Below the pieces are notes generated by a model. It was not told where the DNA came from, did no database searches, and saw nothing but the letters and a program-made list of their open reading frames with translations. From a virus (Duplodnaviria; Caudoviricetes), in IMG/VR virus record IMGVR_UViG_3300037423_001962, positions 1-45,900 of that record: 45,900 nt of DNA. One strand, given 5' to 3'. Each line of letters starts with the position of its first letter. Position 1 is the stretch's first letter. This document shows positions 807 to 45,900 of the stretch, piece after piece. Made by a program: the position numbers and the translations under genes.

Positions 807-3800
807 ATGGCAGATACAAATAAGGAGGCACGTTTAAATCTCGTCATTACGGCTCGTGACGAAGCGAAACAAGTCTTGCAGGAAATGGTTGCGTCTGTTG
901 AATCTTCTTTGAGTGGTATTCGGAAAGTGATGCTTAATGCGTTTCCGGCAGGAGACGTAGTTAAAAAAATGAGCAGTATCGCTACAACAGCCAGTGAAAG
1001 CACGAAAGGCGTTGCTGAAAGTGTAGCGAGTATGGAATCAACACTCAAAGAGGCGTTCACCGCCACCAGTTCGATGATGAATGAGTTTGCGAGTGCGTTT
1101 AGGTCCTCTACGAACAGTGTTCGCGGTTCAACTCGCGAAATGGCCGTAGGCGTTAGCCAAGATTTTAAAGACATTCAAAAATCCGCCCATCAAAATTCTG
1201 CAGATACGTACATGGCGTATCAATCTCTAGGCGACGGAATGAAACATTTCGGTCACGTTGTTGGAGAAGGATTTAAATACGCGATCGAACAAGCAGCCGA
1301 GTTTGACGGAAATATCCAACGTGTAAGTGCGGTTTTAACCCCAGTTGGGAAAGTAACCAGCGATCAGTTGAAACAAATGGGGGATTCGGCACTTCAGATG
1401 GGGATGCAGTCAAAATTTGGAGCAAATGAAATTTTAGGTGCGATGTACAACTTAGCACGACAAGGTTTATCCGCTACGCAAATTTTAGGTGATGGCGTTA
1501 ACGGTGCAATTCAAGTAACGAACGCATTAGCAATGGCAACGGACTCTGATCTAACTGAAACAGCTACGGTCGTTACCGACGTAATGCATGAGTTTGGCGT
1601 TGGTGGAGAGCAGCTTAAAGTGGTTGCGGACATGATCTCTGGTGCAATGCACAACTCCAGTATTTCGATGAACGACTTTCTCGTGAGTATGCGACAAGTC
1701 GGTCCAGTTGCTTCCAATATGCACCAAAACGTAGAAGACGTTTCCGCTGCGTTAGCCTTACTAGCTCAACATGGTATCAAGGGTTCGCAAGCTGGTACCG
1801 CGTTGAAAAATATGCTTTTAGGATTAGAACCGCGTACGAAAAAAGCAACAGAATTAATGCAAGAACTCGGAATATCCGGAGTAAACGGTGCGAAGGATTC
1901 GTTCTACGCATTAGACGGAACATTAAAACCGCTTCCTGACATCTTGGGTGTTTTGAACGATAAGTTTGGCGGTCTTAATGATAGACAAAAACAAGCCGCT
2001 TTGGCTACAACTTTTACCAAATACGGTCTTGCTGGTTTGGATACGGTGGTTACGCAAACGAAAGATAGTTTCCAAGAGTTTGAGGCAGAACTTAAAAAGG
2101 ACGACATCTACACGATCTCCAAGATTAAAATGGACTCCTTACAAGGTGACATCTGGAAACTACACGCCGCAACTCAAACACTTGCCAAGGCATTTGGGGA
2201 AACACTAAGACCGGTTATGCGTGAGTTAGTCACTGTTGTAGGGCAAGTTGCTCATTGGTTCTTTAACTTAAACGAACACACTAGGCATAACATTACGATG
2301 TTTGCGGGGATTGCTTCTGCTGTTCTTGTTACCATGGGAACATTTATCACATTTGGTCTTGGTCTTGAAATGATTATTGGTAAAATCGGATCATTGGCTA
2401 CGTTCTTGAAATATCTCCTTTCCCCTATCCGAGCTCTATCCCTCGTCTTTTCTCCTGTTGGTCTTGCGATTGGTGCGATTGTCATTGCTGTGTATGAGTT
2501 TGCCAAAGCATGGGAAAGCAACACCGGAAATATTCGTGAGAAAACAAAAGCCTTCGCTGATACAGTAAGCAAAAAATTTCATGAATTGGTCGATGACATC
2601 AAGCCTTACTGGGAACGTTTTACTAAAGCAGTAGGTCAAGCGATGGACGACGCGAAACCAGTAGTTTTGGCTGTACTGGGTGCGATCAAAGATGCTCTTA
2701 ATTCAACTGCATTTCAAAAGTTAGAAGAAGGAGCCAAAGCGATTGCTAAGCTGGGTGCGAATGCTGCGATTGCCCATCCAGACGTAACCCTTTTAGGGAT
2801 TGCTCTCATGGCGTTGGTTGGTCCAAAGACGCTAGTGTTGGGTTCAATCAGTGCCATCACTACTGCAGTTGGTGCGATGCCTGCGATCTTCGAAGGAACG
2901 CTTGGAGCGATTGGATTATTCGGAAGAGGTGCGATGGCTACAGCGAATGGTGCGTCCGCTGTAATGAAGGGAACGTTCAATGGGATTGCTACCGCGATCG
3001 AGGCTCCTGCGAAGGGATTTGCTAAACTTGAATCGAGCATGGCAACGATGAAAGCAACGGGTGGATTAACAGCTAACGTATTCGGACCCATGAAGAATAC
3101 GTTTAGAACGATTGGTATCGAGGCTTCATTGATGGGTACGAAAGTGATGAACGGAATCAATATGTTCAGCTTAACGAACATCAAGGCATGGGCTACTAGT
3201 TTCGGTTCTAACATGATCAAAGCATTTTCTTTCTCGAACATCATTCGGGTTGCACAAGGTGCGTTTACCGGGTTTATTCGCGTCCTTACGATTGGTTTTC
3301 GTGCGTTGCTTGGACCGTGGGGCTTAATCATCACAGCCGTCATTTTTGGAGTCGGTGCATTAATTTCGCATTGGGATCAAGTCAAGAAATGGGTAACGGA
3401 TCACTTCGGCAAGAACTTCCCTGCTACGCTTTCGGCTTTCAAGGATAAGTTTGTGGCGGTTTTTCAAAAAATAGGTCAGTTCTTTTCTGAAGTCTGGTCA
3501 TTTATCAAGCAAACCGTGACAGATGTTTTCAACTATGTAGCCCCATTTGTCGAGGGTGCTCTAAAGAAAATAGGAACTTTTTGGTCGGAAAACTGGGGAA
3601 AAATTAAACAACTGTTTAAAGAGGTCATGATTGCCTTAGGAGTGATCCTAGGTCCCGCTTTAGCGGTTTTATATACCCTTATTTCTGGTGCCCTTGGATT
3701 TATCAAGGGAATTTGGCACGATGCCTGGTCGGTTATAAAATCCGTTGTGAAGACGGTTTTCGACGCGATAGCTGGGGTAATACGGATTGCGTGGGACCTT

Positions 3801-4433: not shown

Positions 4434-5864
4434 ATGGCTAGTTCGGTTCAAATCCTGATCGGCGGTGTTGATTATACAAGTTATGTAGACTACGAATCGG
4501 TAAAAGTAGACAATAATATCGTTCAAAGTGCAGATACGATGTCTTTTGTCGTGCATATCAATCCAAACGATTCTCTTACAATGCCAAAATGCGGAAATGA
4601 AGTGGTTTGGCAAAATCCAAACGTGTTAGTTGCTCCTTGGAGTGGAGCTACACAAGTTCCGTACAGAGAATTCGGCGGCGTGATCGTAGAAGTTACCGAG
4701 ACTACCGAAGATGGAATTACCTTAGACTACGAAATAAGTTGTAAGTCGTATGAACATTGGTTCAATCGTCGACTCGTTGCAGCTTGGTATAATCAAGATT
4801 CTCCAGAAAACATTCTTAATTCGATTGTAACGAAATTCTGCCCCACATTTACCACGCACAACGTACAAACTACTGGATTAAAAATTGTTCCAGAATACTT
4901 CGACTATGTTTCTCCTAGTGACGCAATCAAACAAATTGCGGATCAGTGTGAACTGGGTTGGTACATTGATTCATACAAAGATGTCCACCTGTATTCACTC
5001 GAGACGTTTCAAACTCCACTTCCTAATAACACGTTAGATGTTGATCATGATACGCAGCATTACGGTGATTTAACACTTAAAGAAAATTCAGAGCAACAAT
5101 ACAATCGAATCTTTCTTAAAGGGTTTAAAACGCGTGCTACGACGCCTATTTATTTAACGTACACAGCGGACAGCCAAACGTTGCAATGGAACACCGGGTA
5201 CAGACCTTCCAGTCTTAAAGGGGATGTTGCTGTTCAAGTTTATTCGTCCATGCAGGATTATCTGAATGATTATGGATTTCGACATGGTGGATCTCCTCAG
5301 TACGGTACAACGATGACAGTGAAACGTGATATCGTGGACGGGGCTCCTCATCAACAAGGGGCAAATAACACAGCGTATATTAACTATGGACAAATGCTAG
5401 TTCGTATTCCGAACTTCAATAATGGCGGGGCGGTTCCGAATGGGTATGTTGTAGCGTGCCGTTTCTTCTATCTAAAAGATACGGTCGCCTTAGCACAAGA
5501 TCATCAAGCACAAGCACAAACCCAAGCGATTGAGAAAACGGATGATGGTTCATATGAATACAGCGTCCACGATAAAAGCTTAACAAACTCTACGCTTGGA
5601 GCGGTCCAGGCAAAGGGACAGTTGCTGCTTCAAAAATATCGTTTTCCTCAGATTAGTGGTACGTTTATTAGTTATTTTAACTCTACCAATTCTATTGGAT
5701 TTCGTGCTGGACAATATTTTACACTGCTTACAACGAAACGTTTCGGGGGAATTAACGAGATTATGTTTGTTCAGCGAGTAAACAAGTCGATTGTAAAGAA
5801 CGACTCCGGGGGATTAATCACGTTATGCGAAGTTGAGTTTGCGGATAGCCAATATCTTGTATAA
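4434..5864 (+). CDS. Tail tip / baseplate hub protein
   Basis: AAGGAGG then ATG 4434; follows tape measure; hub-like segments (AIKQIAD..GWYIDSYKDVH, GFRAGQYFTL). Confidence 0.7.
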   Translation: MASSVQILIGGVDYTSYVDYESVKVDNNIVQSADTMSFVVHINPNDSLTMPKCGNEVVWQNPNVLVAPWSGATQVPYREFGGVIVEVTETTEDGITLDYEISCKSYEHWFNRRLVAAWYNQDSPENILNSIVTKFCPTFTTHNVQTTGLKIVPEYFDYVSPSDAIKQIADQCELGWYIDSYKDVHLYSLETFQTPLPNNTLDVDHDTQHYGDLTLKENSEQQYNRIFLKGFKTRATTPIYLTYTADSQTLQWNTGYRPSSLKGDVAVQVYSSMQDYLNDYGFRHGGSPQYGTTMTVKRDIVDGAPHQQGANNTAYINYGQMLVRIPNFNNGGAVPNGYVVACRFFYLKDTVALAQDHQAQAQTQAIEKTDDGSYEYSVHDKSLTNSTLGAVQAKGQLLLQKYRFPQISGTFISYFNSTNSIGFRAGQYFTLLTTKRFGGINEIMFVQRVNKSIVKNDSGGLITLCEVEFADSQYLV

Positions 5865-12171: not shown

Positions 12172-12494
12172 TCGAACACTCCAATCTGCTCGTCAAATGA
12201 AATTTCTGGATGGCGTTTTTGTCGGTTTCTGATTTGCGTCTTGGTTTGAAAAGGTGCGTCATGTAGATGTTTTTTACGATCTTGCATGTACTCTACGAGA
12301 ATGTAATCACCAAGACGTTCTAGCGTTTTTTCTTCTGGTCTTACGCCTGTTGAACGTATGTAAGCGTCTGTAATTTCCTTCACTTGTTGGTTTCGTACGT
12401 CTACGTCTGGCTTTTCCGCTTGATGATGCAACGCACGCACCACTTCGATAATTTCTAAACGTGCTTCACCGATATCGCTTGTAAAAATATACAT
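12168..12494 (-). CDS. Conserved phage protein adjacent to sigma region-4 gene
   Basis: GGGAGGAGG RBS; ITDAYIRSTG.RP...LERLGDYIL helical motif. Confidence 0.6.
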   Translation of the reverse strand: MYIFTSDIGEARLEIIEVVRALHHQAEKPDVDVRNQQVKEITDAYIRSTGVRPEEKTLERLGDYILVEYMQDRKKHLHDAPFQTKTQIRNRQKRHPEISFDEQIGVFE

Positions 12495-12850
12495 TATTCC
12501 TCCTCCCAAATGCTTTTTGCATACTCTGTAATTTTCTCTATGGCCCTTTTTTCATAGGTTTGTACAGTTTGCCACACCAAATTTAACGCTTCGGCCGTTT
12601 CTTCCATCGTTAAATCCTTATCGAAACGATAATGCAACACTTCTTTTTCGCGATCTGATAGATTTGCTTTTTTCATAGCATCCTCGAAGTCTATCAATAA
12701 CAAACAAGTATCAATACAACCGTTTTCTACTTTCACGCGTAGATTGTTAATGTCTTCAAGCAGATAATACACGCCACGTTTGTTTCGTAAATTATACTTT
12801 TCTTCGAGATTCTTTTCTTTTTTGTGAATATCCCGTTTGACCATTCCCAT
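12494..12850 (-). CDS. Sigma-70 region 4-like HTH protein (late transcription regulator candidate)
   Basis: LSDREKEVLHYRF..DLTMEETAEALN....TVQTYEKRAIEKI. Confidence 0.8.
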   Translation of the reverse strand: MGMVKRDIHKKEKNLEEKYNLRNKRGVYYLLEDINNLRVKVENGCIDTCLLLIDFEDAMKKANLSDREKEVLHYRFDKDLTMEETAEALNLVWQTVQTYEKRAIEKITEYAKSIWEEE

Positions 12851-12997
12851 GTTGTTCTTCCTCCCAAGTTGCAATATTAAACTTCTCTCGTGCATCAACT
12901 AAAATCTGGCCTGTTTCGATCGAAACGCGTAACATATCTGGCGAATTGATCGCGTTTGCTTCCCCTTCTCGGTGTTTGCTTTTAATCTGCTTTACGC

Positions 12998-17688: not shown

Positions 17689-18054
17689 TTATTGTTTTCC
17701 GCGTGGAACTTTTATGATGTTATGTGCAACAGGATTTAAAGCGTCGATTAAAATTTCAGCGGCGATTTCTGGTTTTGCTTTATCACCACATGTAAATACA
17801 TCGACCATCGCCGTACCCATTTCTGGGTACGTATGGATGGAGAGGTGCGATTCAGCTAATATTGAGATCACCGTTGCACCTCCATATGGATTTCCTTCGA
17901 TGGCTGGGAATTTTTTCGCTACGGTTTCAAGAGGTGTCATTTTTGAAAAATAAATCGCTTCTCCGAATAACGCAGCTAGGTATTCATGGTCTGCTAATAA
18001 CACAGGATCTACTCCGAACATATCTACGAGCAAATGTGTTCCTAGTGAATTCAT
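17689..18054 (-). CDS. speD: S-adenosylmethionine decarboxylase proenzyme
   Basis: GTHLLVD, LAESHLSIHTYPE (self-cleavage ES), VDVFTCG. Confidence 0.95.
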   Translation of the reverse strand: MNSLGTHLLVDMFGVDPVLLADHEYLAALFGEAIYFSKMTPLETVAKKFPAIEGNPYGGATVISILAESHLSIHTYPEMGTAMVDVFTCGDKAKPEIAAEILIDALNPVAHNIIKVPRGKQ

Positions 18055-18256: not shown

Positions 18257-19027
18257 TTATAGAAGTTTGGTTGAGAACAACTCCGCGACCTTCGAACGAA
18301 CCGATTCTTTCAACTCTACCATTCCGAATAAATCATGACCTTTCAGTCCTTCGATCATGGCAACGAGTCCATTATCGGCTTTGTATTTCTTGTTGAAAAT
18401 CTGTTCATAGTCTCCGCAGAAGATAATGCACGAGCCTTTTGAAACACGACTTCCTAGTAATCGGATTTGTTCTTTTGTAAGCAGCTGGCATTCATCGACG
18501 ATAATGATAGAGTCTTGGATGTCGCGGCCTAGCATATGAGCAACGATATCAAATTCGATTTGTCCGCGTTGCTGTAGATAAAACAATTCCTGATCTCCGC
18601 CTTCTAAGTTATCGACGATACTTCCCATCCAATTTCGAATCTTCTCATTCTTATCTCCTTTCAGGAAGCCAATTTCTTCACCGGCAGGAGCGGGCTGTTT
18701 GACGATAAACAAGCGTTGATACTCTCCGCTTTTAATTTTATTGAGCCCATACTGCATTGCTGCTTTCGTTTTTCCGCTTCCTGCGATTCCGGCCGCTACT
18801 TTAATCGGAATTTTATCGTTACTGAGTAGGTCAAAGAGCATTTTTTGCTCGAGATTTTTCGGTGCGAATCCTTTGATTTTATCGTACTTCAATGGTAGTA
18901 GCGTTTCTCCATTGAATCGATAAGCTTCTCCCTCGCATAGTACGTACTCGTTCACACCTGGAACTAATTTCCCCTCGTAGATACTTGCTAGTTCTGATTG
19001 TGTGACTTCTCGATACCCTTTGTACAT
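18257..19027 (-). CDS. phoH: PhoH-family ATPase
   Basis: PKNLEQ, G.AGSGKT, EEIGFLKGD, GRDI...IIIVDECQ, GDYEQ, RS.VAE. Confidence 0.93.
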   Translation of the reverse strand: MYKGYREVTQSELASIYEGKLVPGVNEYVLCEGEAYRFNGETLLPLKYDKIKGFAPKNLEQKMLFDLLSNDKIPIKVAAGIAGSGKTKAAMQYGLNKIKSGEYQRLFIVKQPAPAGEEIGFLKGDKNEKIRNWMGSIVDNLEGGDQELFYLQQRGQIEFDIVAHMLGRDIQDSIIIVDECQLLTKEQIRLLGSRVSKGSCIIFCGDYEQIFNKKYKADNGLVAMIEGLKGHDLFGMVELKESVRSKVAELFSTKLL

Positions 19028-23470: not shown

Positions 23471-23737
23471 CTAGTTAACAACAAATAGTAAGCGTAATTT
23501 TGGGTGTTCTTTTAATTTCTGCATTAGTTCGTTCAATGGTTCGTCTTCGTGTTTACGCCAACCCCAACCTTTTTCACCCCTAAAAAAACTAAAATTACAT
23601 CTATCGTTTCCGACTCGTACAGTAGCAAATAGAATGTTACTTGTTAATTCATAGCCCTCAACGTCGTAATCTTCTTGTTCCAATGCCTGCTTTACTATAG
23701 TCGCTGCATCTACCATTTTTTGTCCCCCTATTTTCAT
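23471..23737 (-). CDS. Hypothetical protein with C-terminal HPKLRLLF motif
   Basis: Ends QKLKEHPKLRLLFVVN. Confidence 0.65.
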   Translation of the reverse strand: MKIGGQKMVDAATIVKQALEQEDYDVEGYELTSNILFATVRVGNDRCNFSFFRGEKGWGWRKHEDEPLNELMQKLKEHPKLRLLFVVN

Positions 23738-26066: not shown

Positions 26067-26942
26067 CTACTTTTTGCTGCTCTTTTTTTCTTCAAAACTG
26101 TATCCGCCGTCTTTATGGCACTGATTTTTAAATGGGCAGAATCCACATTTTGAAAGGTCTGGCTCTGGAAGTTTTTCTTCTTTAATCGCTTCTACAACAG
26201 AAGCAAGTCTCAGCAACAGCTCTTTCGCCTCTTCTTTGGAGACGGAAACGAAGTAATGAGCGATGTCTTCTTTATCAGGGTTAATGTCGCTCCATTCAGG
26301 CTTACTTAGTGATTCATATTCAAAAATCCAATCCGTAATACCCCAAATTAAGGCATAGGCGACAGCTTGCTTTTTATGCGTATCCTGAGGCGAACCTTCT
26401 TTTAAAATCTTGTTAAGGTTCTTTCGTTTGTCTTTCGTTTTCTTTTCGAATCCGATTATGCGACTTACGTCTCCGTTCTCGTCCAATAGACCTAATTTTC
26501 CATCCGAACGACCACGAAGTTTTACCGTGTGACCGTTGACCGTGTAGGATTTCTCTCCGTCGAATTCAGCGTCTAAGAATTTAAAATGCACCGAATGACC
26601 CGCTTTTTTTAGCTTTTCTTCCATTTTAAAATAGTCGTCTTGGGTGATGTCGTGGCATCCTGTTCCGTTTCGACTCATTCGCTCACGCCATGGAATCAAT
26701 GGAATCGTATCTTTTTCGGCGTTTGTGTTTTCGTAGTAGAGCTCTCGCATACATTTATCAACGCCAGACGGGGAAAAGTAAATTTCGCTTCGCAAACGTT
26801 GTTCGCGTGGGATAGAGTAGAAGGTGTTAATTTGCTCGTGAAATAAATCCGCCAGGTACTGTTCATCGTGCATTTCTTTTTTCGGTGCATCAAAATCTGG
26901 ATAGTGTTTCTCTTCTTCTGCGTCAAAATAAAATTTGTTCAC
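26067..26942 (-). CDS. Cas4-like / PD-(D/E)XK exonuclease with Fe-S cysteines
   Basis: FSPS...C.RELYY, GRSDG, FEKKT, Q..AY, CGFCPFKNQC. Confidence 0.85.
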   Translation of the reverse strand: MNKFYFDAEEEKHYPDFDAPKKEMHDEQYLADLFHEQINTFYSIPREQRLRSEIYFSPSGVDKCMRELYYENTNAEKDTIPLIPWRERMSRNGTGCHDITQDDYFKMEEKLKKAGHSVHFKFLDAEFDGEKSYTVNGHTVKLRGRSDGKLGLLDENGDVSRIIGFEKKTKDKRKNLNKILKEGSPQDTHKKQAVAYALIWGITDWIFEYESLSKPEWSDINPDKEDIAHYFVSVSKEEAKELLLRLASVVEAIKEEKLPEPDLSKCGFCPFKNQCHKDGGYSFEEKKSSKK

Positions 26943-27223
26943 TGTATTCCCCCACTTTCAAATGCACCTGTTAGAAAGAGAAGTCTTGTTTGGGGACATT
27001 CTTCTTTTACAAAGTGCCAAATTTGTTTTAAACATTCTGCGTAGTCAATATTATTTCTGTCTAAAAAACCCATGAATGAGTTAGGGTGGAAAGGCACTTC
27101 AATTATATATTGTTTGTCGTATTTATTACGGGTGATTCCTATTTGATACATGTCATTTATGATCACAATTATTCTGAATTCGTTGTTGTCTTCGTAGATA
27201 TTCAAAAATTTAACTTCAACCAT
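26939..27223 (-). CDS. Hypothetical protein with C-terminal P.TRLLFL motif
   Basis: GAGGAG RBS inside polA end, ATG 27223; ends IWHFVKEECPQTRLLFLTGAFESGGIQ. Confidence 0.6.
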   Translation of the reverse strand: MVEVKFLNIYEDNNEFRIIVIINDMYQIGITRNKYDKQYIIEVPFHPNSFMGFLDRNNIDYAECLKQIWHFVKEECPQTRLLFLTGAFESGGIQ

Positions 27224-29390
27224 TGAACCACTCCTCGAAGTCGACTTTCTCCGCCCAACGATGCGGATTAATTTCGACGTCTGATTTAATTGGAACATTT
27301 AACTTCACAGCATTTTGCATGGTATCGCGGATCCGAAGCACTTCTTCACGTGTGATTCCCTTCGGGCAATCGAACAACAACTCATCATGAATCTGAAGGC
27401 TAATAAAGGAATCTAACTCAGGCAGCACCTGCTGCAAATCGACAATGGCCTTCTTTAAAAGCGTTCCGGCACTGGACTGAATCGAAAAGTTACCCGCCAT
27501 TCTATCGCCACTTAACGCGTCGTATCGGTCACCTGATTTGTACTCGTTATGCAACCGTCTTTTACGTCCGAACAAATCGGTCACATAGTGATCCATGCGT
27601 GCTTTTTTCACTTGCTCGTCCATGAATTTCTTGATACCAGGGTAAGCACGGAAATAACCGTCGATGATTTCTTTTGCTTCTTTTTCGCTGATTTGCAACT
27701 GTTCAGCAAGTCCCTTCGGACTCATTCCGTATACGATTCCAAAGTTAATTGTCTTAGACGCTTTCCGCCATTTTTGCTCTTGGGAGCCGTCTATGTCTTT
27801 CTTTTCTTCGATTTGTTTGTACGCTTCTTCGAATGGAAGATGGGAAAGATAGATTTGGGCAGCGGTTGTCGAGTGCAAATCTTTTCCCGTTACGAATGCA
27901 TTAATCAAGATTGGGTCATTTGCATAATGGGCGAGCACTCTCAGTTCTATCTGCGAAAAGTCGATGGAAATGAAAATACGGTCACTCCCGCTCGGTAAAA
28001 ACAAATGGCGAATCTCTGGACGCTTTGCAGGAATTTGTTGTGTGTTTGGACTGCTGCAGGTAAACCGCCCTGTCGCCGCTCCCCACGTGTTGTGCCACGG
28101 GTGAATGTGATTATCGGACTTTACTTCGCCTGGTAGTTTTTGCGTGAATGCTTGGCGAAGTTTTGAGAGCTCGCGAATCGAAAGAATCTTTTCGATAACT
28201 GGATGTTCTTTTTTAATCTTTTTGAGAACCTTTACGCCCGTCGACCCTTTATCAGGATTCGGTAGATTTAATTCGTTAAAAAGCTTTTTCGACAGCTGTG
28301 CTGGCGAATTGATGTTAATTTCTTCGCCGAGTAGCTCGTAGATTTGCTGTTCTAACTGTTTCTCTTCTGCTTCCAATTTGGTGTCTAGGTCAATCGCCGC
28401 TTGCGTATTAAATCGAATCCCGCGTAAGTCGGAGCGAATAAATTCACGGCATACAGGCATTTCAATGTCGTACACTAGTTTTCGGATATCCGTTAGATCG
28501 CTTCGCTTTTCATACCAATGGTTGATAAAGTTAAACAACTTCATCGTAAGGCTTGTATCTTTGCAGGCATACACACACGCCACATCAATCGGAACTTCGT
28601 GGAATTTAGCCACATCAAAGAGTTCGTCGAAATTGCTAGACGGAATATCCAGCCAAAGCGTCGCTAAATCTTTCAGACGGTGGGACGCGTTTTCATCAAG
28701 CGACATCGCTCCGATTCGTGTATCAAACAAAAGCTTGTCCACTAAATTGATTCCGTATTTGATAAAAAACCATTTACAGTCGAAAGGGGCGTTGTGCATG
28801 ACGATCTGTTTTTCTTCCAATACATCTTTTAGTTCCGAGAAAACAAGGGTTGGCCAGGTTGAATCTGTTTGTTCTAGGTGCTGCAGCGGAATGTAGAAAT
28901 GTTCGTCCTTGTCCGTCGAAATCGAAAATCCTGCCATTTCACCCCGGAAGGGATCCAACGCCGCCCCCTTTTCGCCAAATGTCTCGCAGTCGATGGCAAG
29001 CACTTTCGCACCCTGAAGCTTTGCTTTGCTAAAGTGGAGACTCTCTTGCGTAGAAACTAAGTAGTAATTAGCAGGTTTCTCTTTTACCATGCTTGCGAGT
29101 CTTTCTTTTCGCTGTATATCTTCATAGAGTTTATAAAGTTCGAAGACTTCTTTTTTTGATAATTTCTTTGAACTCTCGCGGGTAAGTGTTCCGCTTTGAA
29201 GCATTCGTTCTACGGAGTTCACGATAGTGAGTTCCTCTTCACGAAGTTTCAGCGAGCGGATACGGTCAAACGCTTCATCCAACGTTTCTTCTTTTTTGGT
29301 TTTTATTTGTTTTACGCGTTGCATGGCTTTTTTACTCTTTTGTTCTTCTTTTGCTAATGCTTTAAAAACAAACCCCAACTCTTCCACCAC
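27216..29390 (-). CDS. polA: Family A DNA polymerase with 3'-5' exonuclease, no 5'-3' exonuclease domain
   Basis: IDCET, HNAPFD, YACKD exo motifs; TGRF, DFSQIELR, K.INFGIVYG, QIHDELLF. Confidence 0.97.
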   Translation of the reverse strand: MVEELGFVFKALAKEEQKSKKAMQRVKQIKTKKEETLDEAFDRIRSLKLREEELTIVNSVERMLQSGTLTRESSKKLSKKEVFELYKLYEDIQRKERLASMVKEKPANYYLVSTQESLHFSKAKLQGAKVLAIDCETFGEKGAALDPFRGEMAGFSISTDKDEHFYIPLQHLEQTDSTWPTLVFSELKDVLEEKQIVMHNAPFDCKWFFIKYGINLVDKLLFDTRIGAMSLDENASHRLKDLATLWLDIPSSNFDELFDVAKFHEVPIDVACVYACKDTSLTMKLFNFINHWYEKRSDLTDIRKLVYDIEMPVCREFIRSDLRGIRFNTQAAIDLDTKLEAEEKQLEQQIYELLGEEININSPAQLSKKLFNELNLPNPDKGSTGVKVLKKIKKEHPVIEKILSIRELSKLRQAFTQKLPGEVKSDNHIHPWHNTWGAATGRFTCSSPNTQQIPAKRPEIRHLFLPSGSDRIFISIDFSQIELRVLAHYANDPILINAFVTGKDLHSTTAAQIYLSHLPFEEAYKQIEEKKDIDGSQEQKWRKASKTINFGIVYGMSPKGLAEQLQISEKEAKEIIDGYFRAYPGIKKFMDEQVKKARMDHYVTDLFGRKRRLHNEYKSGDRYDALSGDRMAGNFSIQSSAGTLLKKAIVDLQQVLPELDSFISLQIHDELLFDCPKGITREEVLRIRDTMQNAVKLNVPIKSDVEINPHRWAEKVDFEEWFNG

Positions 29391-30169: not shown

Positions 30170-30838
30170 TTAACTTTTTTGGTACTCAGTTGCGTAGTCG
30201 CGAAGTCTCCCTACGGATCTTTCTACGCTGCTTTTTGACTTGTTAACCATTTCACCGATTTCTCGGTAGGTGTATCCTTGCGTAAGGAGTACGGCAATTT
30301 TTGCATCAATAGGAGATTTTGATTCTATGTATGCAAAGAGGTCCGTTTTCGTCTCGTCCATTTGAACTTCATAGGACGCTGATTTATCTTCTTGCTCCTG
30401 GGCGGTATAGTAAGAAGCACCGCCGTGATCTTCACTATTTCTCTCTTGCAATTCTTCAAAACTTACAGTCTTTAGAACTTCTTTTTCCTTGTATCTTCCG
30501 TTTTCATCTTTTACAGAACGTAATGTTTGGGAACGTACAACATCAAACTGTATTTTAGCAAGACGTACTTTCAGCCAATACTTAAATGGTTTTCCGGCAT
30601 TTACTTCAAAATTTTGAACGGCTTTTGCAAATTGTGCTACGTAGTGTGTATGAAAGTCATCTTCATCTACAGTTGGATATTTAATGTGATCTTGCGATGC
30701 ACGGATTTTCAGATAATTTTCATATCGTTTGAAAAGGTCACCTAGGGAAAATTCGTTTCCTTGCTGGTACTCTAAGGCTAACTGCTCGTCTGAAATTGTA
30801 TGTTGGTTACTCATGTATCGAATCCCTCCGAACGCCAT
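30170..30838 (-). CDS. Phage RNA polymerase sigma factor (SigH/ECF-like; start probably 30814)
   Basis: SDEQLA..YQ.G....L..LF.RY region 2; AV..F......PF..W; GYTYREIGE...KSKSSV region 4. Confidence 0.85.
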   Translation of the reverse strand: MAFGGIRYMSNQHTISDEQLALEYQQGNEFSLGDLFKRYENYLKIRASQDHIKYPTVDEDDFHTHYVAQFAKAVQNFEVNAGKPFKYWLKVRLAKIQFDVVRSQTLRSVKDENGRYKEKEVLKTVSFEELQERNSEDHGGASYYTAQEQEDKSASYEVQMDETKTDLFAYIESKSPIDAKIAVLLTQGYTYREIGEMVNKSKSSVERSVGRLRDYATEYQKS

Positions 30839-39393: not shown

Positions 39394-39513
39394 AAAAAGG
39401 GGGGAATCCATCGGATGGTAACGACTAAAAAGGGGGGAATCCATCGGTTACAAAAACGAAAAAGGGGGGAATCCATAAGATAGTAGCCTAAAAAAGGGGG
39501 GAATCCATCGGTT
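39394..39513. repeat. Four iterons AAAAAGGGGGGAATCCAT (plasmid-type origin candidate)
   Basis: G6 tracts start at 39399, 39432, 39464, 39496 (period 33/32/32); downstream of Rep-like gene. Confidence 0.85.
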
Positions 39514-39596
39514 ACAAATTAAAAGGGTACCAATATTTCAGTTTGTTTTTAAATTGGGGTGCCTTTTTCTGTTTGAAAGATAAAAAAAGAAGAGAC

Positions 39597-40595
39597 CTAT
39601 TCGGTCTCTTTCTCTTCTCTTTCGATTGCTTCGCGTATTTTACGGTCTAATTCTGTTTCTTTCTTTTTCTTTGTTCGGTTATTCGAAACGGGTAAAATTG
39701 AAACATCGAATGGAACGTTTCTTTCTTTTCTTCTATCTTCAACAACACTGATGAAACTGAAGTTGATCGGTTCAATTTCTACGCCGTTTTTCTTTTTGCG
39801 GTTCATCATTCGCAAGTTGGCGTAGTAAATCTCGAATTCCTCCACTTGCAGCATTGCTTTTTCATATTCCATTCGCGTTACAAAGTACGGATGTATTTTA
39901 TAATATTTCGTTTTTCCAATGTCTGAACTAATGGAAACTCCATGGTTTATGAGTTCTCGAATAAATTTCGTTAGGCTTTCAGAATCTATCGCTAATGTTT
40001 CAGATAACACGTCATGTGTTAACATCTCGATTTTATACGGGTCTTGCTCTAATGGATTCGTGCACACGATCGTGTTGTGCATGTTTACCCATGGAATCAT
40101 TTTATAAAGCAGGCCAAGTGCTTCAACAGATACATGATACGCCAGTAGTCGACCGCTTGTGTGGTATACTTTTGCAAACGGGGATTCGAGAACGTATCCC
40201 ATTGTGTGGTATTTTTCAGTTATGTAATAATGCTGCCCTCTTTTTCCTAGGAAATTCAATGCGACGAGCTCAGATAAGAATTCCCCAGCTTGCTTTGCAT
40301 CTCGTATTCCCCAAAGATTCGCGAAGTCTCCACGTTTTGCTGCCTTTCCATCGATGCATAATACTTTTTCCTTGTCTTCTAGTGATTCACTCATTTCCAT
40401 AAGTAGAACAAGTCGGAATACTCGTCCAGAATTACGCAATGACATAGGTTTTGTTAATTCATAAACAGGATCTAAGTAAAAGTTCATCCAGTTTGGTTCT
40501 TCCCTTCTTACTTTTTCTTCTGTTTCTTTAATAAGCAAATAGGATTCGCCATCGATGGTGGCACGTGCTACCGATTGTTTTTTTCGTAAAGCCAT
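39597..40595 (-). CDS. Rep-like replication initiator (tandem wHTH)
   Basis: KVY....R.L...S...LGLLYK.IP..N...N..C.NP.E.D, Y.IHP motifs as recalled from Bacillota plasmid/phage Rep proteins; adjacent iterons. Confidence 0.7.
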   Translation of the reverse strand: MALRKKQSVARATIDGESYLLIKETEEKVRREEPNWMNFYLDPVYELTKPMSLRNSGRVFRLVLLMEMSESLEDKEKVLCIDGKAAKRGDFANLWGIRDAKQAGEFLSELVALNFLGKRGQHYYITEKYHTMGYVLESPFAKVYHTSGRLLAYHVSVEALGLLYKMIPWVNMHNTIVCTNPLEQDPYKIEMLTHDVLSETLAIDSESLTKFIRELINHGVSISSDIGKTKYYKIHPYFVTRMEYEKAMLQVEEFEIYYANLRMMNRKKKNGVEIEPINFSFISVVEDRRKERNVPFDVSILPVSNNRTKKKKETELDRKIREAIEREEKETE

Positions 40596-40724
40596 TATTT
40601 TATCCCTCCATTTGTGTTTGAATTGCGTCGTGTCCATTCAATAACTTCGTGATGAAAGGTTTTAACCCTTGCCATTGAATTTCGTTTCTAAAATTCTTTC
40701 GGCAAATTTTCGAATAACTTTAGT

Positions 40725-41918: not shown

Positions 41919-42042
41919 GTTTTAACACTCCTTTCTACATAGTTAAAGAATATATCCTTTTATCTGTTTGTCAAATTATTTTTATTTTCCCTATTTCCTG
42001 TCGAGAGTAAAAATAATTTTGGCATTTTCTGTATCACAATTA

Positions 42043-42069
42043 AAAAGCCTGGTATCCAGGCTCTTTTTT
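42043..42069. terminator. Bidirectional terminator
   Basis: AAAAAGCCTGG-tat-CCAGGCTCTTTTTT. Confidence 0.6.
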
Positions 42070-42173: not shown

Positions 42174-42407
42174 TTAATACCATTTGCCATCAATTGTATA
42201 ATGCCACCAAATATCTGGGAAAAAAATGTTCACTGTACGCTCTTTGTTGTCCCATTTTACCTGCTGAATATCGGCGATCGTGAATTTAGCTCTCGTTTCC
42301 GCTCCCATCGCTTGTTGGTGCAGCTGATATGTTCTTTCAAGAATAAGCTTTGCAGTAGGCGAAAGCTTATTGTAACCTTTTACTTTACTAAAATCGAGTT
42401 GTTGCAT
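42174..42407 (-). CDS. Conserved small hypothetical protein
   Basis: LDFSKVKGY..LS ... WWHYT..G.WY. Confidence 0.65.
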   Translation of the reverse strand: MQQLDFSKVKGYNKLSPTAKLILERTYQLHQQAMGAETRAKFTIADIQQVKWDNKERTVNIFFPDIWWHYTIDGKWY

Positions 42408-43013
42408 CTAAATTTCCCCTTTTTCATCAAATAACAGGATAAGTCTAATAGATGGATGATTTTTAACCTGATCGTACATCATTTCCCAATGCTTTATAAT
42501 TCCTGTTGCTGTATTTAGTGGCAAGTATTCCAATTCATCTTCTTCGAATACTTCATAAGTGATATTATACTCATTCCAATGACGCTTAAAGGAAAGGGAT
42601 TGCCCTTTCACGGTCCACTTGATGCTTTTTGAATATTCGTCCTCCGTAAACGAAACGCTTTCAATTATAGGTACGTTTCGTTCGTTAAATGCTTTTATTT
42701 TCTCGATCATCGTAAGGAATTGACGTGTCATTTCGGCTAATACTCCTGCCCACCACCCCTTTTCTTGGCGATTCAGGGCGTTTTTTAAATGTGTTCCTGT
42801 ATTTTTTATCGAGTTTCCAAAATACTCGTATTCTTCTTTTATATCATAGGGGCTTGCGATGATAGATACTGTTCCGATATCTCGGCTTGCTCCACCTATG
42901 GGTATTCCACTTACCTCGATAACGAGTTTATACGTATCGTTTTTTAGATAAACGACTTCTCGGTTATATAAACCGTTAATACTTTCAAACTCTGATGATT
43001 TCATTTCCCCCAC
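42408..43013 (-). CDS. Hypothetical protein, C-terminal HP.IRL motif family
   Basis: Ends MYDQVKNHPSIRLILLFDEKGEI. Confidence 0.7.
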   Translation of the reverse strand: MGEMKSSEFESINGLYNREVVYLKNDTYKLVIEVSGIPIGGASRDIGTVSIIASPYDIKEEYEYFGNSIKNTGTHLKNALNRQEKGWWAGVLAEMTRQFLTMIEKIKAFNERNVPIIESVSFTEDEYSKSIKWTVKGQSLSFKRHWNEYNITYEVFEEDELEYLPLNTATGIIKHWEMMYDQVKNHPSIRLILLFDEKGEI

Positions 43014-43020
43014 TTCCTTT

Positions 43021-43332
43021 CTATTCTAATAAATGAATTAATCGAAACTTCGGATGGTTCCGAACTGCTTCGTAAATGTCCTCTATATAATCGATTTCTT
43101 TTAACAACATGGTAACATTAAATAACTTTTTTTGTTTATTATAATCTAACATTACATGATCGGTTCGATTTGATGTGATAATTTCGCCGTGGATGATACT
43201 TTCTGGGTCATTTATTTGGCGAGTTAATGAATACGTAAACTTTACATCCATTGTGATTATACGCATCGTTTCGTATATTTCTTCGATATCGTTTATTTCG
43301 ACGAAGCTTTCCGTTATTGTTTCACGTGGCAT
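43021..43332 (-). CDS. Hypothetical protein, C-terminal HP.FRL motif family
   Basis: Ends IYEAVRNHPKFRLIHLLE. Confidence 0.75.
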   Translation of the reverse strand: MPRETITESFVEINDIEEIYETMRIITMDVKFTYSLTRQINDPESIIHGEIITSNRTDHVMLDYNKQKKLFNVTMLLKEIDYIEDIYEAVRNHPKFRLIHLLE

Positions 43333-43342
43333 TTATGCCCTC

Positions 43343-43687
43343 CTATCCCAACAGGTAAATTAAGCGAAAATTCGGGTGTTCCTTGATCGCTTCGAATATT
43401 TCCGGTATCCACTCTTCTTTTTCGGGTGGTCTGTTATTATCCCATTTAAATTCTTTTGTATTTTTATTGAATTCAACATGCCAACCCCTGCTGTCAAACT
43501 CACTCTCAAATTCATAATTGTGAAATTTGTGATCTGCGTTGGGTGCTTTGATTCTGCATGTATAAGTATATGTATAAGTTATGCTAAGCGTAAAGCCTCT
43601 GTGGTTTTCATATATAATCTTTAATTCTTTAAGTTCCTTAAATTTCTCATTAAATTTTTCATACTCTAGATTTTCCAAATCATACAT
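43343..43687 (-). CDS. Hypothetical protein, C-terminal HP.FRL motif family
   Basis: AAGGAGG RBS, ATG 43687; ends IFEAIKEHPNFRLIYLLG. Confidence 0.75.
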   Translation of the reverse strand: MYDLENLEYEKFNEKFKELKELKIIYENHRGFTLSITYTYTYTCRIKAPNADHKFHNYEFESEFDSRGWHVEFNKNTKEFKWDNNRPPEKEEWIPEIFEAIKEHPNFRLIYLLG

Positions 43688-43763
43688 AGTATTCCCTCCT
43701 TCCTGGAAAACTTTCCCCGACATGGCAGGTTTTTTGCAGCTCATCGCACGTTACGACGCGGGA

Positions 43764-44000
43764 TTATTCCCACGCCGCACACCGTGCAAATAGCTTAAAT
43801 TTCGGATGGTTCCGCGTATAGTGAAGCAGTTCTTGCAGTGTTTTTTCGTCGGCTTGCGTTGTGATCATGCTCACTTCGCCTGTTTCTTTATGTAGCACTG
43901 CATACGCAGATGTGCCCTTTATGTCGTTTATATCGTAATTTATCAAAAAGTACATATCATTCTGTAAATTTTCAAAAATGGTAATATTTGTAACGTTCAT
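43764..44000 (-). CDS. Hypothetical protein, C-terminal HP.FKL motif family
   Basis: GGAGGTGG RBS, ATG 44000; ends LLHYTRNHPKFKLFARCAAWE. Confidence 0.7.
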   Translation of the reverse strand: MNVTNITIFENLQNDMYFLINYDINDIKGTSAYAVLHKETGEVSMITTQADEKTLQELLHYTRNHPKFKLFARCAAWE

Positions 44001-44001
44001 A

Positions 44002-44184
44002 CTAAGCAATGTAACCACCTCCGCTGTACTTTTGCAGGCCGTGCTGGACGCTCTTTCCGTATCTTTCAATAACATTCTTTAATAACGTTATTTCGGATGG
44101 ATTCAATTCGTTTTCCAGTGTTTCGACCTCTTCTTTTTCTTTTACTTCTAAAGATTCATTTTCAAATTTACTATTCCGTAACAT
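44002..44184 (-). CDS. Hypothetical 60-aa acidic protein
   Basis: AAAGGGG RBS, ATG 44184; first gene after the third ribozyme in transcription order. Confidence 0.6.
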   Translation of the reverse strand: MLRNSKFENESLEVKEKEEVETLENELNPSEITLLKNVIERYGKSVQHGLQKYSGGGYIA

Positions 44185-44246
44185 GTGCAAATCCCCTTTC
44201 GTATGTTTGTAAGTGTTCAGCCCCTTAGGGTGCCGGGCGTTTTCGT

Positions 44247-44313
44247 GTTCGCCGACCGCTCCGATCGACTCGGGGCGGTTTCGTCGCAATTTTCAGCGAC
44301 TCATCAGGGCAAC
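44247..44313 (-). ncRNA. Type I hammerhead ribozyme HH-A (cleavage between 44254 and 44253)
   Basis: GUUGCC CUGAUGA GUCGC-ugaaaauu-GCGAC GAAA CCGCCCCGA-gucga-UCGGAGCGG UC^ GGCGAAC; canonical core. Confidence 0.92.
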
Positions 44314-44465
44314 TCTATAAGAACTTTTAGGCGTTCGAATTCGTTTTGATAGTGTTTGACCGTTTTCATGTCTTGCTCGAAGTTAAACGGGTGGAACGTT
44401 TTAACGATTCGACGATATTTCATTTTAAGTACGAAGAACTCCATTTTTAGCATTTGTTTTCTCAT
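44304..44465 (-). CDS. Hypothetical 53-aa basic protein (below ORF-track cutoff)
   Basis: AGGAGGT RBS; MRKQMLKMEFFVLKMKYRR...LIELP*; stop is the UGA of the hammerhead core. Confidence 0.6.
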   Translation of the reverse strand: MRKQMLKMEFFVLKMKYRRIVKTFHPFNFEQDMKTVKHYQNEFERLKVLIELP

Positions 44466-44477
44466 CGGCTTGACCTC

Positions 44478-44567
44478 CTAGTGTAAGAAAATCCAAACAA
44501 GCAAGCCAGAAACGATGGAAAACGAAGCAACTTCTTTAACGTAGTACGTGAATTTTTCAAATGTCAT
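44478..44567 (-). CDS. 29-aa single-TM peptide (below ORF-track cutoff)
   Basis: AAAGGGG RBS; MTFEKFTYYVKEVASFSIVSGLLVWIFLH*. Confidence 0.55.
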   Translation of the reverse strand: MTFEKFTYYVKEVASFSIVSGLLVWIFLH

Positions 44568-44637
44568 AAATAAACAACCCCTTTGCGTTTGTAATTTGTT
44601 ACAGGCCCACCTTATCGTGTTGGCGGGGTCTGGGCTT

Positions 44638-44700
44638 TCGCCGACGTTGGAGCGTGTCCAACGTTTCGGAGCGGTGCCTCCTGCTCCATCATCAGGGCGA
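44638..44700 (-). ncRNA. Type I hammerhead ribozyme HH-B (cleavage between 44643 and 44642)
   Basis: UCGCC CUGAUGAU GGAGC-aggaggcacc-GCUCC GAAA CGUUGGA-cacgc-UCCAACG UC^ GGCGA; one extra U after the core. Confidence 0.9.
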
Positions 44701-44702
44701 TG

Positions 44703-44894
44703 TTACTCTTCGGGTTTCTCATCCGGCTTTATTAGCATAGCAATCATAAAAGGTATTGTGCATAGCATGCTGATTTCTAAATGACCTCGATGGATTACTT
44801 CTTTTGGAATAAACAGTAACGCCAAGATAAGTAAAAATAACCCACAAGTAATCCCGATAATTTCGTATCTATATTTTTTCATATGTTTTTTCAT
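44703..44894 (-). CDS. 63-aa two-TM membrane protein flanked by two ribozymes
   Basis: AAGGAGG RBS; two hydrophobic helices. Confidence 0.7.
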   Translation of the reverse strand: MKKHMKKYRYEIIGITCGLFLLILALLFIPKEVIHRGHLEISMLCTIPFMIAMLIKPDEKPEE

Positions 44895-44940
44895 GTTTTC
44901 GCCTCCTTAAGTGTGCCGCGTCATTGACTGCGGGGCATAT

Positions 44941-45005
44941 TGCCGACCGTCGCGGATAGCCTCCGCTAGGTTTCGACCCATTGCCGTTGGGTCATCGTCA
45001 GGGCG
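44941..45005 (-). ncRNA. Type I hammerhead ribozyme HH-C (cleavage between 44945 and 44944)
   Basis: CGCC CUGACGAU GACCCA-acggcaa-UGGGUC GAAA CC-ua-GCGGA-ggcua-UCCGC-gac-GG UC^ GGC; extra U after core, short stem I. Confidence 0.87.
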
Positions 45006-45006
45006 T

Positions 45007-45348
45007 TTACTCAACTTCTAGCAACAACAATAAACGGGATTTTTTATCGTTTAAACACAGTTCTAAAACTTCGTCGGCGTACTGTTGTGCTAATTGTTCC
45101 AACTTTTCGATATAATCGCTAATTGGCATGTATTCTGCGAGTTTGTCGTCATACACAAGCTGGCGTTCTGCAGCGGTTGCACAGTATCCAATTTCGTAAA
45201 CGTACCATCCTTGCGAGTCTTTCGATAATTCAACGTATCCGTAGCCGTGTTTTGACCCTTCGAACTCAAACGTAAAATGAGCGGCTCTTACATTCTCCTG
45301 GTAAACTCCACCTTGATATTCGATATTGATGATTTTCATATGTATCAC
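45007..45348 (-). CDS. Hypothetical protein, divergent C-terminal RL motif family
   Basis: Ends VLELCLNDKKSRLLLLLEVE; first gene of the ribozyme operon. Confidence 0.7.
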   Translation of the reverse strand: MIHMKIINIEYQGGVYQENVRAAHFTFEFEGSKHGYGYVELSKDSQGWYVYEIGYCATAAERQLVYDDKLAEYMPISDYIEKLEQLAQQYADEVLELCLNDKKSRLLLLLEVE

Positions 45349-45430
45349 TCTCCCTTTTAATGTTATTTGTATTTGTTGAAACGTGTTCGCAACGTTTATT
45401 TTTTAAGGAACTTTTGTTCCCTGCACTTTC

Positions 45431-45458
45431 TTTATACTTGAAATTTTTACAATGTCAA
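45431..45458 (-). promoter_or_regulatory. Putative host sigma-A promoter of the small-gene operon
   Basis: TTGACA-N16-TATAAA with A-rich upstream tract. Confidence 0.55.
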
Positions 45459-45694
45459 ACATTTTGTGTTTTTTGTTTTGTGTTCATTTATTATCTACCT
45501 TATATAACGACTGTTTCCTTTTTTTCTTTAGGAATATTTTTAAAAAAGATTTTTACAAATCTTATAAAGGTGCATCACCAAAGGGTTTGTGCATCTAAAA
45601 ATATTTTTAAACAGTTACTAACAGTAATTAACAGTAAAAAATATCTATTACTAATTATTACTAACTACATATATTATTTAATAGATATCTAGCG

Positions 45695-45800
45695 ATGGGT
45701 AAAAATTTACTCATGGGTAAGAATTTACTCATCCCATATATATAATATATCTTTATTCTTTAATAACTAAATAAATAGGGAATGAGTAAAAACATACCCA
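45695..45800. repeat. 18-bp quasi-palindromic repeats ATGGGTAAnnnTTTACTC in AT-rich DNA (second origin candidate)
   Basis: Tandem copies 45695-45712 and 45713-45730, inverted variant 45784-45800, matching copy inside initiator gene at 34499-34516. Confidence 0.7.
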
Positions 45801-45900
45801 ACGTTTAAAACGTGATCCAAATAAAGCGGGGTTAAATTTTTAAGGTGGCAGGGGGTCTCGTTAGTGCTGGCGTTTGAATGCCTTTTTTTTTCTGGGGTGG

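Follow-up and report, generated by a model that had tools for sequence, protein, structure and literature searches.

Three type I hammerhead ribozyme motifs at the ends of small genes in a probable Bacillales phage-plasmid

Introduction

What could a phage gain from three putatively self-cleaving RNA motifs set one after another at the ends of its small genes? The role of phage hammerheads is still regarded as an open question (PMC6155905; PMC6765202). Clustered hammerheads flanking prophage genes have been described, among them a triple around ardA in A. tumefaciens and pairs in C. scindens and A. caulinodans (Perreault 2011; PMC3088659). Three such arrangements were reported there to cleave in vitro, the A. 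tumefaciens triple is active in E. coli as well, a processing into single-gene mRNAs was proposed, and a stem I-II pseudoknot was described for all three hammerhead topologies (PMC3088659).

The window analysed here is a stretch of 45,900 nucleotides, the IMG/VR virus record IMGVR_UViG_3300037423_001962 from position 1 to 45,900. An earlier note, made from its letters, had pointed out three hammerheads on the minus strand and had suggested that they cut one sigma-A transcript into defined mRNAs, by analogy with the processing of T7 early mRNA. We examined the motifs, the genes around them, the RNA ends that they would create and their counterparts in other phages, and weighed what cutting at these positions might achieve.

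Results

Three hammerheads on the minus strand

The minus strand between 45004 and 44249 carries three complete type I hammerheads, HH1 (44942..45004), HH2 (44638..44700) and HH3 (44249..44312), each with three stems around the core, of which stems II and III are closed and stem I is open. In the conventional hammerhead residue numbering, the core C3 U4 G5 A6 N7 G8 A9, G12 A13 A14, A15.1-U16.1 and H17 is complete in all three. The CUGANGA of this core begins at 45001 (HH1), 44695 (HH2) and 44307 (HH3). With C17 at 44945, 44643 and 44254, respectively, the predicted cut sites fall at 44945/44944, 44643/44642 and 44254/44253, spaced by 302 and 389 nt. Positions 44944, 44642 and 44253, given in the earlier note as RNA ends, are indeed the first bases of the predicted 3' products, and its pieces of 302 and 389 nt were recovered.

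A descriptor with minimum stem lengths of 3 (stem I), 5 (stem II) and 2 (stem III) gave three matches in the window and none in each of 100 dinucleotide shuffles; a fourth match at 5300, obtained with the loosest descriptor (shuffle mean 0.04, maximum 1), was weak and was discarded. Folded singly, HH1, HH2 and HH3 each adopt the hammerhead as minimum free energy structure (z -0.9, -3.1 and -3.5). The covariance model R1, built from 61 phage copies outside the window, scored them at 34.5, 36.7 and 56.3 bits (rough E values 5.5e-8, 1.2e-8 and 2.8e-14), with the next match in the window at 9.8 bits; since the 61 copies were collected with window-derived patterns, R1 is not fully independent. The search with Rfam models proposed in the earlier note failed to retrieve them: RF00163 (Hammerhead_1) gave no match in the window at the gathering score, and likewise none in control genomes, and below that score it gave HH3 only (E 0.66). 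Fold, cut-site and covariance model checks of the window revealed neither a further ribozyme nor a core-less cut site.

HH1 has a stem II of 6 bp with GGCA in loop II, a stem III of 3 bp, an internal loop and 5 bp, and a stem I of 3 bp, and HH2 has a stem II of 5 bp with GGC in loop II, a stem III of 8 bp including A15.1-U16.1 and a stem I of 5 bp; both are called by descriptor, fold and R1. HH3 combines a canonical core with the common loop II UGAAAAUU. In HH1 and HH2 an extra U (44994 and 44688, respectively) sits between A9 and G10.1. An extra residue after A9 is a tolerated hammerhead variant, found at the same place in the CChMVd (+) hammerhead (De la Pena and Flores 2001, via PMC3705267); the residue of CChMVd is A, whereas the U of HH1 and HH2 has been reported to raise cleavage in trans 3-4-fold (PMC3705267).

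Only a 13-nt stretch of the core is common to HH1, HH2 and HH3, so the stems differ between the copies, as had been claimed. The three form two subclasses, HH1 and HH2 with a GC-rich loop II predicted to pair with the tail, and HH3 with the UGAAAAUU loop. Identical copies of the stem-loop II of HH3 occur in further loci of phages and genomes (e.g. L012, L147 and L170), which together with the two subclasses argues that the copies are not one recent triplication. The earlier note was right about the full cores and the stems; it had missed the extra U of HH1 and HH2, the internal loop in stem III of HH1 and the stop codon of ORF4 inside HH3, as well as a covarying loop II-tail pseudoknot and two predicted hairpins at the new 5' ends.

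A row of small genes and its signals

The hammerheads belong to a minus-strand row of ten small ORFs, which is flanked by a sigma-A-like promoter near 45440 on one side and a hairpin at 42062-42041 on the other. The putative promoter (45431..45458) consists of TTGACA (45458-45453), 16 nt and TATAAA (45436-45431), with A-tracts upstream, and transcription is predicted to start near 45424. This promoter pattern matches just once in the window; the stock scan, requiring T at position 6, omits it. A GAAC-N4-GTTC palindrome at 45408..45419 resembles a LexA box as DNA and would form a 5' hairpin, with a G-U pair, as RNA; its outer bases are off consensus, its centre lies about 10 nt past the predicted start, and the window holds three perfect copies of GAAC-N4-GTTC against 0.6 expected. 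A CGAAC-N4-GTTCG-like LexA box at or just after the start has a precedent in phage GIL01 (P1; PMC4551915). As a family trait the box was rejected, with no match in 83 kb upstream of 79 loci and four in 113 kb downstream.

ORF1 (45007..45339) encodes 110 aa of no known family, and its UAA begins 8 nt before C3 of HH1. ORF2 (44703..44894; 63 aa, no family above cut-off) has the Shine-Dalgarno (SD) sequence AAGGAGG at 44908-44902, a clear hydrophobic segment at about residues 12-30 and a second, weaker one, and its stop begins 10 nt before C3 of HH2. ORF3 (44478..44567; 29 aa) has a single hydrophobic segment. ORF4 (44304..44465; 53 aa) ends inside the HH3 core, where its UGA stop is U4-G5-A6 itself. 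Relative to C3 the stops therefore stand at -8 (HH1), -10 (HH2) and +1 (HH3), and the ribozymes are sense to the genes and at gene ends, as the first description had it. The 3' block (42174..44184) comprises a 60-aa ORF, four HPxxRL-like ORFs and a 77-aa ORF, of no known family. The four ORFs (43764-43991, 43343-43687, 43021-43332 and 42408-43004) have a C-terminal HPxxRL-like motif in common at low overall identity; a C-terminal helix ending in HPxxRL is also seen in 23471-23737 and 26939-27298, and weakly in ORF1 (45007-45339).

None of the ten ORFs found a family above cut-off in PHROGs, Pfam, PADLOC or NCBIfam, the Atlas matches for the row proteins were all below 0.9, and ORF1 and the 103-aa paralog are singletons (the latter in a search of 5.8 billion proteins). 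The transcript likely ends at the terminator-like hairpin (42041..42062, minus strand), which has T runs on both sides and is listed by the scan on the plus strand; between 45.4 and 42.1 kb the terminator scan of the minus strand gave one weak match (43064-43049) and otherwise none. The row is presumably expressed early in infection. Its sole other long spacer (43681-43775, minus strand) contains a GUC and, spanning the stop codon upstream, a hairpin of 8 bp, but lacks a hammerhead core.

Loop II, tails and the new 5' ends

The segments just past the cut sites of HH1 and HH2 may pair in two ways. In the HH1 tail (44916..44944), UGCC is predicted to pair either with loop II, as a pseudoknot, or with the new 5' end in a hairpin at 44944-44934, which a second predicted hairpin with a bulged A follows (44933-44916). 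The GCC of the HH2 tail (44603..44642) is likewise predicted to pair with loop II or to close a GAAA hairpin (44642-44633) at the start of the 3' product, again followed by a second predicted hairpin. The HH3 tail (44218..44253) has predicted hairpins at 44253-44236, from the first base on, and at 44235-44218; the second (4 bp, bulged A, 3 bp, triloop) has the shape of that after HH1 with a different sequence. The bulged-A hairpin was rejected as a family motif, for it occurs in 4 of 153 copies, two of them from the window, and its descriptor matches 36 times across the window. All three 3' products are predicted to be paired from base 1; behind the first hairpin come a second one, an A/C-rich spacer and then the SD. 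A hairpin is likewise predicted at the very start of the primary transcript.

The loop II-tail duplexes of HH1 and HH2 are predicted at -6.1 and -5.1 kcal/mol, values that are not true pseudoknot energies, and HH3 has no Watson-Crick pseudoknot contact. When folded without the pseudoknot, the probability of stem I falls from 0.85-0.99 with a tail of 5-8 nt to 0.00-0.20 with 30-40 nt, in a model that ignores both the pseudoknot and Mg2+. The loss of stem I through the tail costs 1-6 kcal/mol, and HH3 has no pseudoknot to offset this cost. Ribozyme activity with the full tail is thus a prediction, in which the tail rivals stem I.

A family of phage copies

With the GCC/GGC stem I pattern, 106 of 120 IMG/VR loci passed the descriptor, 14 of them with at least two copies and 7 with at least three; two extra patterns brought in CCU/AGG and GGU/ACC stems. 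A genome-wide scan with the pattern was set aside as mostly chance matches (11 of 120 genome loci passed). The first set was reduced from 103 to 96 copies by removing five likely chance matches and two with short flanks; the second set holds 152 unique copies, including HH2 and HH3 and, because of a stricter stem III filter, excluding HH1. De-duplication was by local sequence only, so that related phages inflate all family counts.

The arrangement of the window is widespread among these copies. In 108 of 144 copies an ORF of 40 codons or more has its stop at -15 to +4 of C3 (the three 20-nt bins that follow hold 17, 11 and 7), and an SD with a start codon follows within 120 nt past the cut in 89 of 96, at a median of 34 nt. 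Pairing in the family stems reaches 98.8%, and stems I and II show changes on both sides, in a set that the descriptor itself selects for pairing. An inserted base after A9 occurs in the subclass with the GC loop II and is U in 17 of 18 copies. Among copies with a GC loop the tail triplet matches loop II in 40 of 51 (permuted mean 23.9, maximum 33 in 2000 permutations). Family tails that are not pseudoknot partners complement the 5' end of their product, as for a cap hairpin, in 30 of 78 cases (permuted 16.3, maximum 25), and the first three bases of the product are predicted to be paired in 36 of 43 copies against 19.0 when shuffled. In stability of the first 45 nt downstream of the cut, HH2 ranks 8th and HH3 18th of 152. 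The cap hairpin is uneven, not universal, across stem I types (GGC 21/30, AGGA 2/21, AGGU 1/8). Copies with an AGGA stem I on large contigs (L241, L246, L252, L263, L268 and similar) show no clear SD and no cap hairpin; these may belong to hosts with other translation signals or decay enzymes.

The proteins downstream of family copies have a median length of 93 aa; 57 of 69 were scanned, of which 52 had no Pfam match and one matched ArdC-N. The latter, whose gene (L169:3074-3862, plus strand) immediately follows a type I hammerhead, matches ArdC-N with E 2.3e-5 and, weakly, a zincin, and echoes the ardA of Perreault 2011. In another record (IMGVR_UViG_3300009156_000502, L050:1827-5300, plus strand) nine type I hammerheads occur in 3.4 kb, about one per small gene; there loop II (ACC/GCC) covaries with the tail (GGU/GGC), and stem I differs between neighbours.

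The phage record, its host and its relatives

The record is linear, 79% complete and present in soil and rhizosphere DNA runs. The window encodes tail and lysin proteins, ParA, a CopG-like protein and two recombinases. A Rep-like gene (39597-40637) has distant relatives on Halobacillus, Bacillus and Paenibacillus plasmids, and four iteron-like direct repeats between it and parA (39394-39533, spaced 32-33 bp) support a plasmid replicon. The nearest relative of the DNA polymerase is that of Bacillus phage Mgbh1 (53.7%). Judged by Rep, repeats and polymerase, the window is likely a Bacillales phage-plasmid. It also holds a sigma-factor-like gene, a second ORF of similar look, and ORFs that look, by eye, like S-adenosylmethionine decarboxylase and PhoH (12494-12898, 30170-30838, 17689-18054 and 18257-19027). 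AT-rich repeats, inverted as well as direct and nested in one another, lie close to the right end of the record (45693-45803, with 30-nt arms at 45714-45743 and 45771-45800); they could be an operator, an origin or an end structure.

The earlier note had proposed a search of related genomes for the same layout. Searches for close relatives, with Rep or ParA against IMG/VR, with ORF1 against metagenomes and with DNA against phage and plasmid records, gave none. The best Rep relatives reach 38%. Thirteen loci with distant Rep relatives gave one weak match to a single hammerhead (L390, E 0.018), a lone hammerhead-like motif with an atypical stem II (3569-3669, plus strand) that comes after a stop codon, again among small phage genes in a row, and an Rfam scan of seven of the 13 returned no ribozyme. 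As a check for natural variants, fragments from 4 of 10 DNA runs proved identical to the window, with zero differences.

Discussion

Taken together, the anatomy somewhat favours the view that HH1-HH3 are cut-and-cap punctuation of one predicted 3.4-kb transcript, placed between stops and ribosome-binding sites. During transcription, stem I would pair once the GGC past the cut site has been made; the tail GCC of HH1 and HH2 would then dock on loop II, and in HH3 the contact would come from the UGAAAAUU loop. Cleavage after GUC would yield pieces of about 480, 302, 389 and about 2200 nt. Each upstream piece would end just past its stop codon, with its 3' end folded into stems II-III and carrying a cyclic phosphate; such an end might protect it as a terminator does, without halting RNA polymerase. 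Each downstream piece would be freed by folding its tail back onto the 5' strand of the same piece, and two hairpins from the first base on would impede both re-ligation and RNase J1. The outcome would be mRNAs that are separately stable and separately translated, with a fixed, RiboJ-like 5' structure. For B. subtilis it has been reported that RNase J1 breaks down the 5'-OH product of glmS and that a hairpin downstream of a processing site makes the product more stable (PMC11780869); a cap would therefore be needed for lasting 5'-OH mRNAs in a Bacillales phage.

The arrangement and the processing model are already published (Perreault 2011), and HH1-HH3 are a clean example of them. With hammerheads close together that flank single genes or short blocks, and with tail, lysin and DNA polymerase genes present, the window fits what defines the clustered prophage hammerheads. 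It resembles those clusters in having several hammerheads per polycistronic phage region, each at a gene boundary, and, by prediction for HH1 and HH2, in the stem I-II pseudoknot; it differs in that all three copies are type I, two of them with the U insertion, next to orphan genes in a region with a Bacillales phage-plasmid look, and in that the activity of the Perreault clusters was assayed, whereas the window is known from sequence. The accessible text of PMC3088659 makes no mention of stop-codon placement, a 5' cap hairpin, RNase or translation, and four motif strings are absent from its 11 supplementary text files (the alignment dataset perhaps lies outside them). A literature search, with subscription journals mostly outside its scope, gave no title or abstract opening that deals with phage hammerheads set at stop codons or followed by a cap hairpin. 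Rfam type I hammerheads (RF00163, clan CL00010) have the core and the open stem I of HH1-HH3, although the copies of the window do not reach the Rfam threshold.

RNase III cuts the one early transcript of T7 at gene boundaries, requires a host protein to do so, and leaves 5'-phosphate and 3'-OH ends. Cutting at boundaries would be common to T7 and the window, with a host protein needed for T7. Cutting into gene-sized mRNAs independently of host nucleases is a plausible reading of the anatomy, given the predicted promoter and transcript. The suggestion of a self-cut sigma-A transcript agrees with the promoter and the arrangement, but it is not new (PMC3088659), and it overlooked both that a 5'-OH end is a substrate of RNase J1 and that the tail competes with stem I. 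By self-cleavage glmS of B. subtilis yields a 5'-OH mRNA in a Bacillus cell, as the window would, but glmS is ligand-dependent, lies in a 5' UTR and leads to decay, whereas the new end in the window is predicted to be paired (PMC11780869; PMC6765202). RiboJ likewise places a hammerhead and then a hairpin ahead of the ribosome-binding site and fixes the 5' end; it is engineered, single and set after a promoter in E. coli, in contrast to the natural, repeated copies after stop codons described here (PMC7536230).

Other readings have to be weighed against cut-and-cap. We consider it unlikely that the ribozymes gate translation, with the uncut 5' strand of stem I (GCCCU) pairing with the next SD while the tail takes GGC, until cutting, or a ribosome at the upstream stop, frees the SD. 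The stops at -8, -10 and +1 from C3 suit such a gate, its fold is predicted to be dominant in all three copies with 10-20 nt of upstream context (P 0.87-0.97), and after the cut the SD opens more cheaply by 4.4, 1.9 and 1.9 kcal/mol, an effect equally large if upstream strand and core stay unpaired as a ribosome would keep them; the pairing falls, however, to 0.04, 0.26 and 0.69 with 40 nt of context. Swapped ribozyme-tail pairs hide the SD equally well, which speaks against a cognate fit, and in the family a gain of at least 2 kcal/mol on cutting appears in just 11 of 88 copies. Native duplexes between strand and SD are slightly more stable in 69 family copies (-6.3 against -5.9 when permuted, 0/200), an edge for which shared GC content can account. 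A still more elaborate proposal makes each unit a two-state RNA switch instead of a constitutive cutter: the tail GCC would lock the ribozyme or fold back, the anti-SD strand would silence the next gene, a ribosome at the upstream stop would pick the state, and the row would be an early operon released by SOS (LexA), its products capped against RNase J1 by the repeated double hairpin. We regard this, too, as a long shot.

It is also rather doubtful that the cuts serve as a decay timer, in which 5'-OH entry points hasten decay by RNase J1 and early genes are shut off as in glmS. The precedent in B. subtilis includes a 5' trimming activity on 5'-OH ends (PMC11780869), and the first hairpins of the window are short, with 3-4 bp; yet each predicted 3' product opens paired and adds a second hairpin, so that entry of a 5' exonuclease is expected to be hindered. 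Slightly less credible still appears the idea that at least one copy is poorly active or conditional because the tail hairpin beats stem I, with the ratio of partial cutting tuning output. Equilibrium folds with the full tail disfavour stem I in all three copies, and HH1 has a stem I of 3 bp and an interrupted stem III (z -0.9); against this, the cores are intact, stem I would be the first to form during transcription, loop II-tail duplexes are predicted for HH1 and HH2 (-6.1/-5.1 kcal/mol), and the competing tail is family-wide. Ligation of the 302- and 389-nt pieces into circular mRNAs, which the earlier note had raised, or their re-splicing in new orders, is very improbable. The end chemistry is compatible, the junctions would restore a stem I of 3 and 5 bp, and retrozymes circularise likewise (PMC6155905). 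In related clusters, however, the ends of 12 of 28 neighbouring pairs do not fit and would form fewer than 3 bp; the cap hairpin would take away the 5' strand required for ligation, and predicted circular folds lose about 4 kcal/mol in stability against the linear ones; spliced or circular products of prophage clusters were searched for and none were detected, according to PMC3088659. Retrozymes are, moreover, bounded by repeats with the same ribozyme at both ends, while the copies of the window have 13 nt in common and their units are protein-coding.

A phage family of hammerheads that Rfam overlooks is evidently common, with about 140 and 130 IMG/VR stretches for two stem I patterns. The window offers a 1.3-kb cassette with three hammerheads of two subclasses and with promoter and ribosome-binding signals of Bacillus type, which can be moved into B. 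subtilis; since rnjA and rny mutants and end-sequencing are available there, stabilisation, destabilisation and gating could be told apart directly. If the cap model of cut-and-cap punctuation is true, the phage would have supplied a natural RiboJ-like part for hosts with RNase J, which would be useful in the synthetic biology of Gram-positive bacteria.
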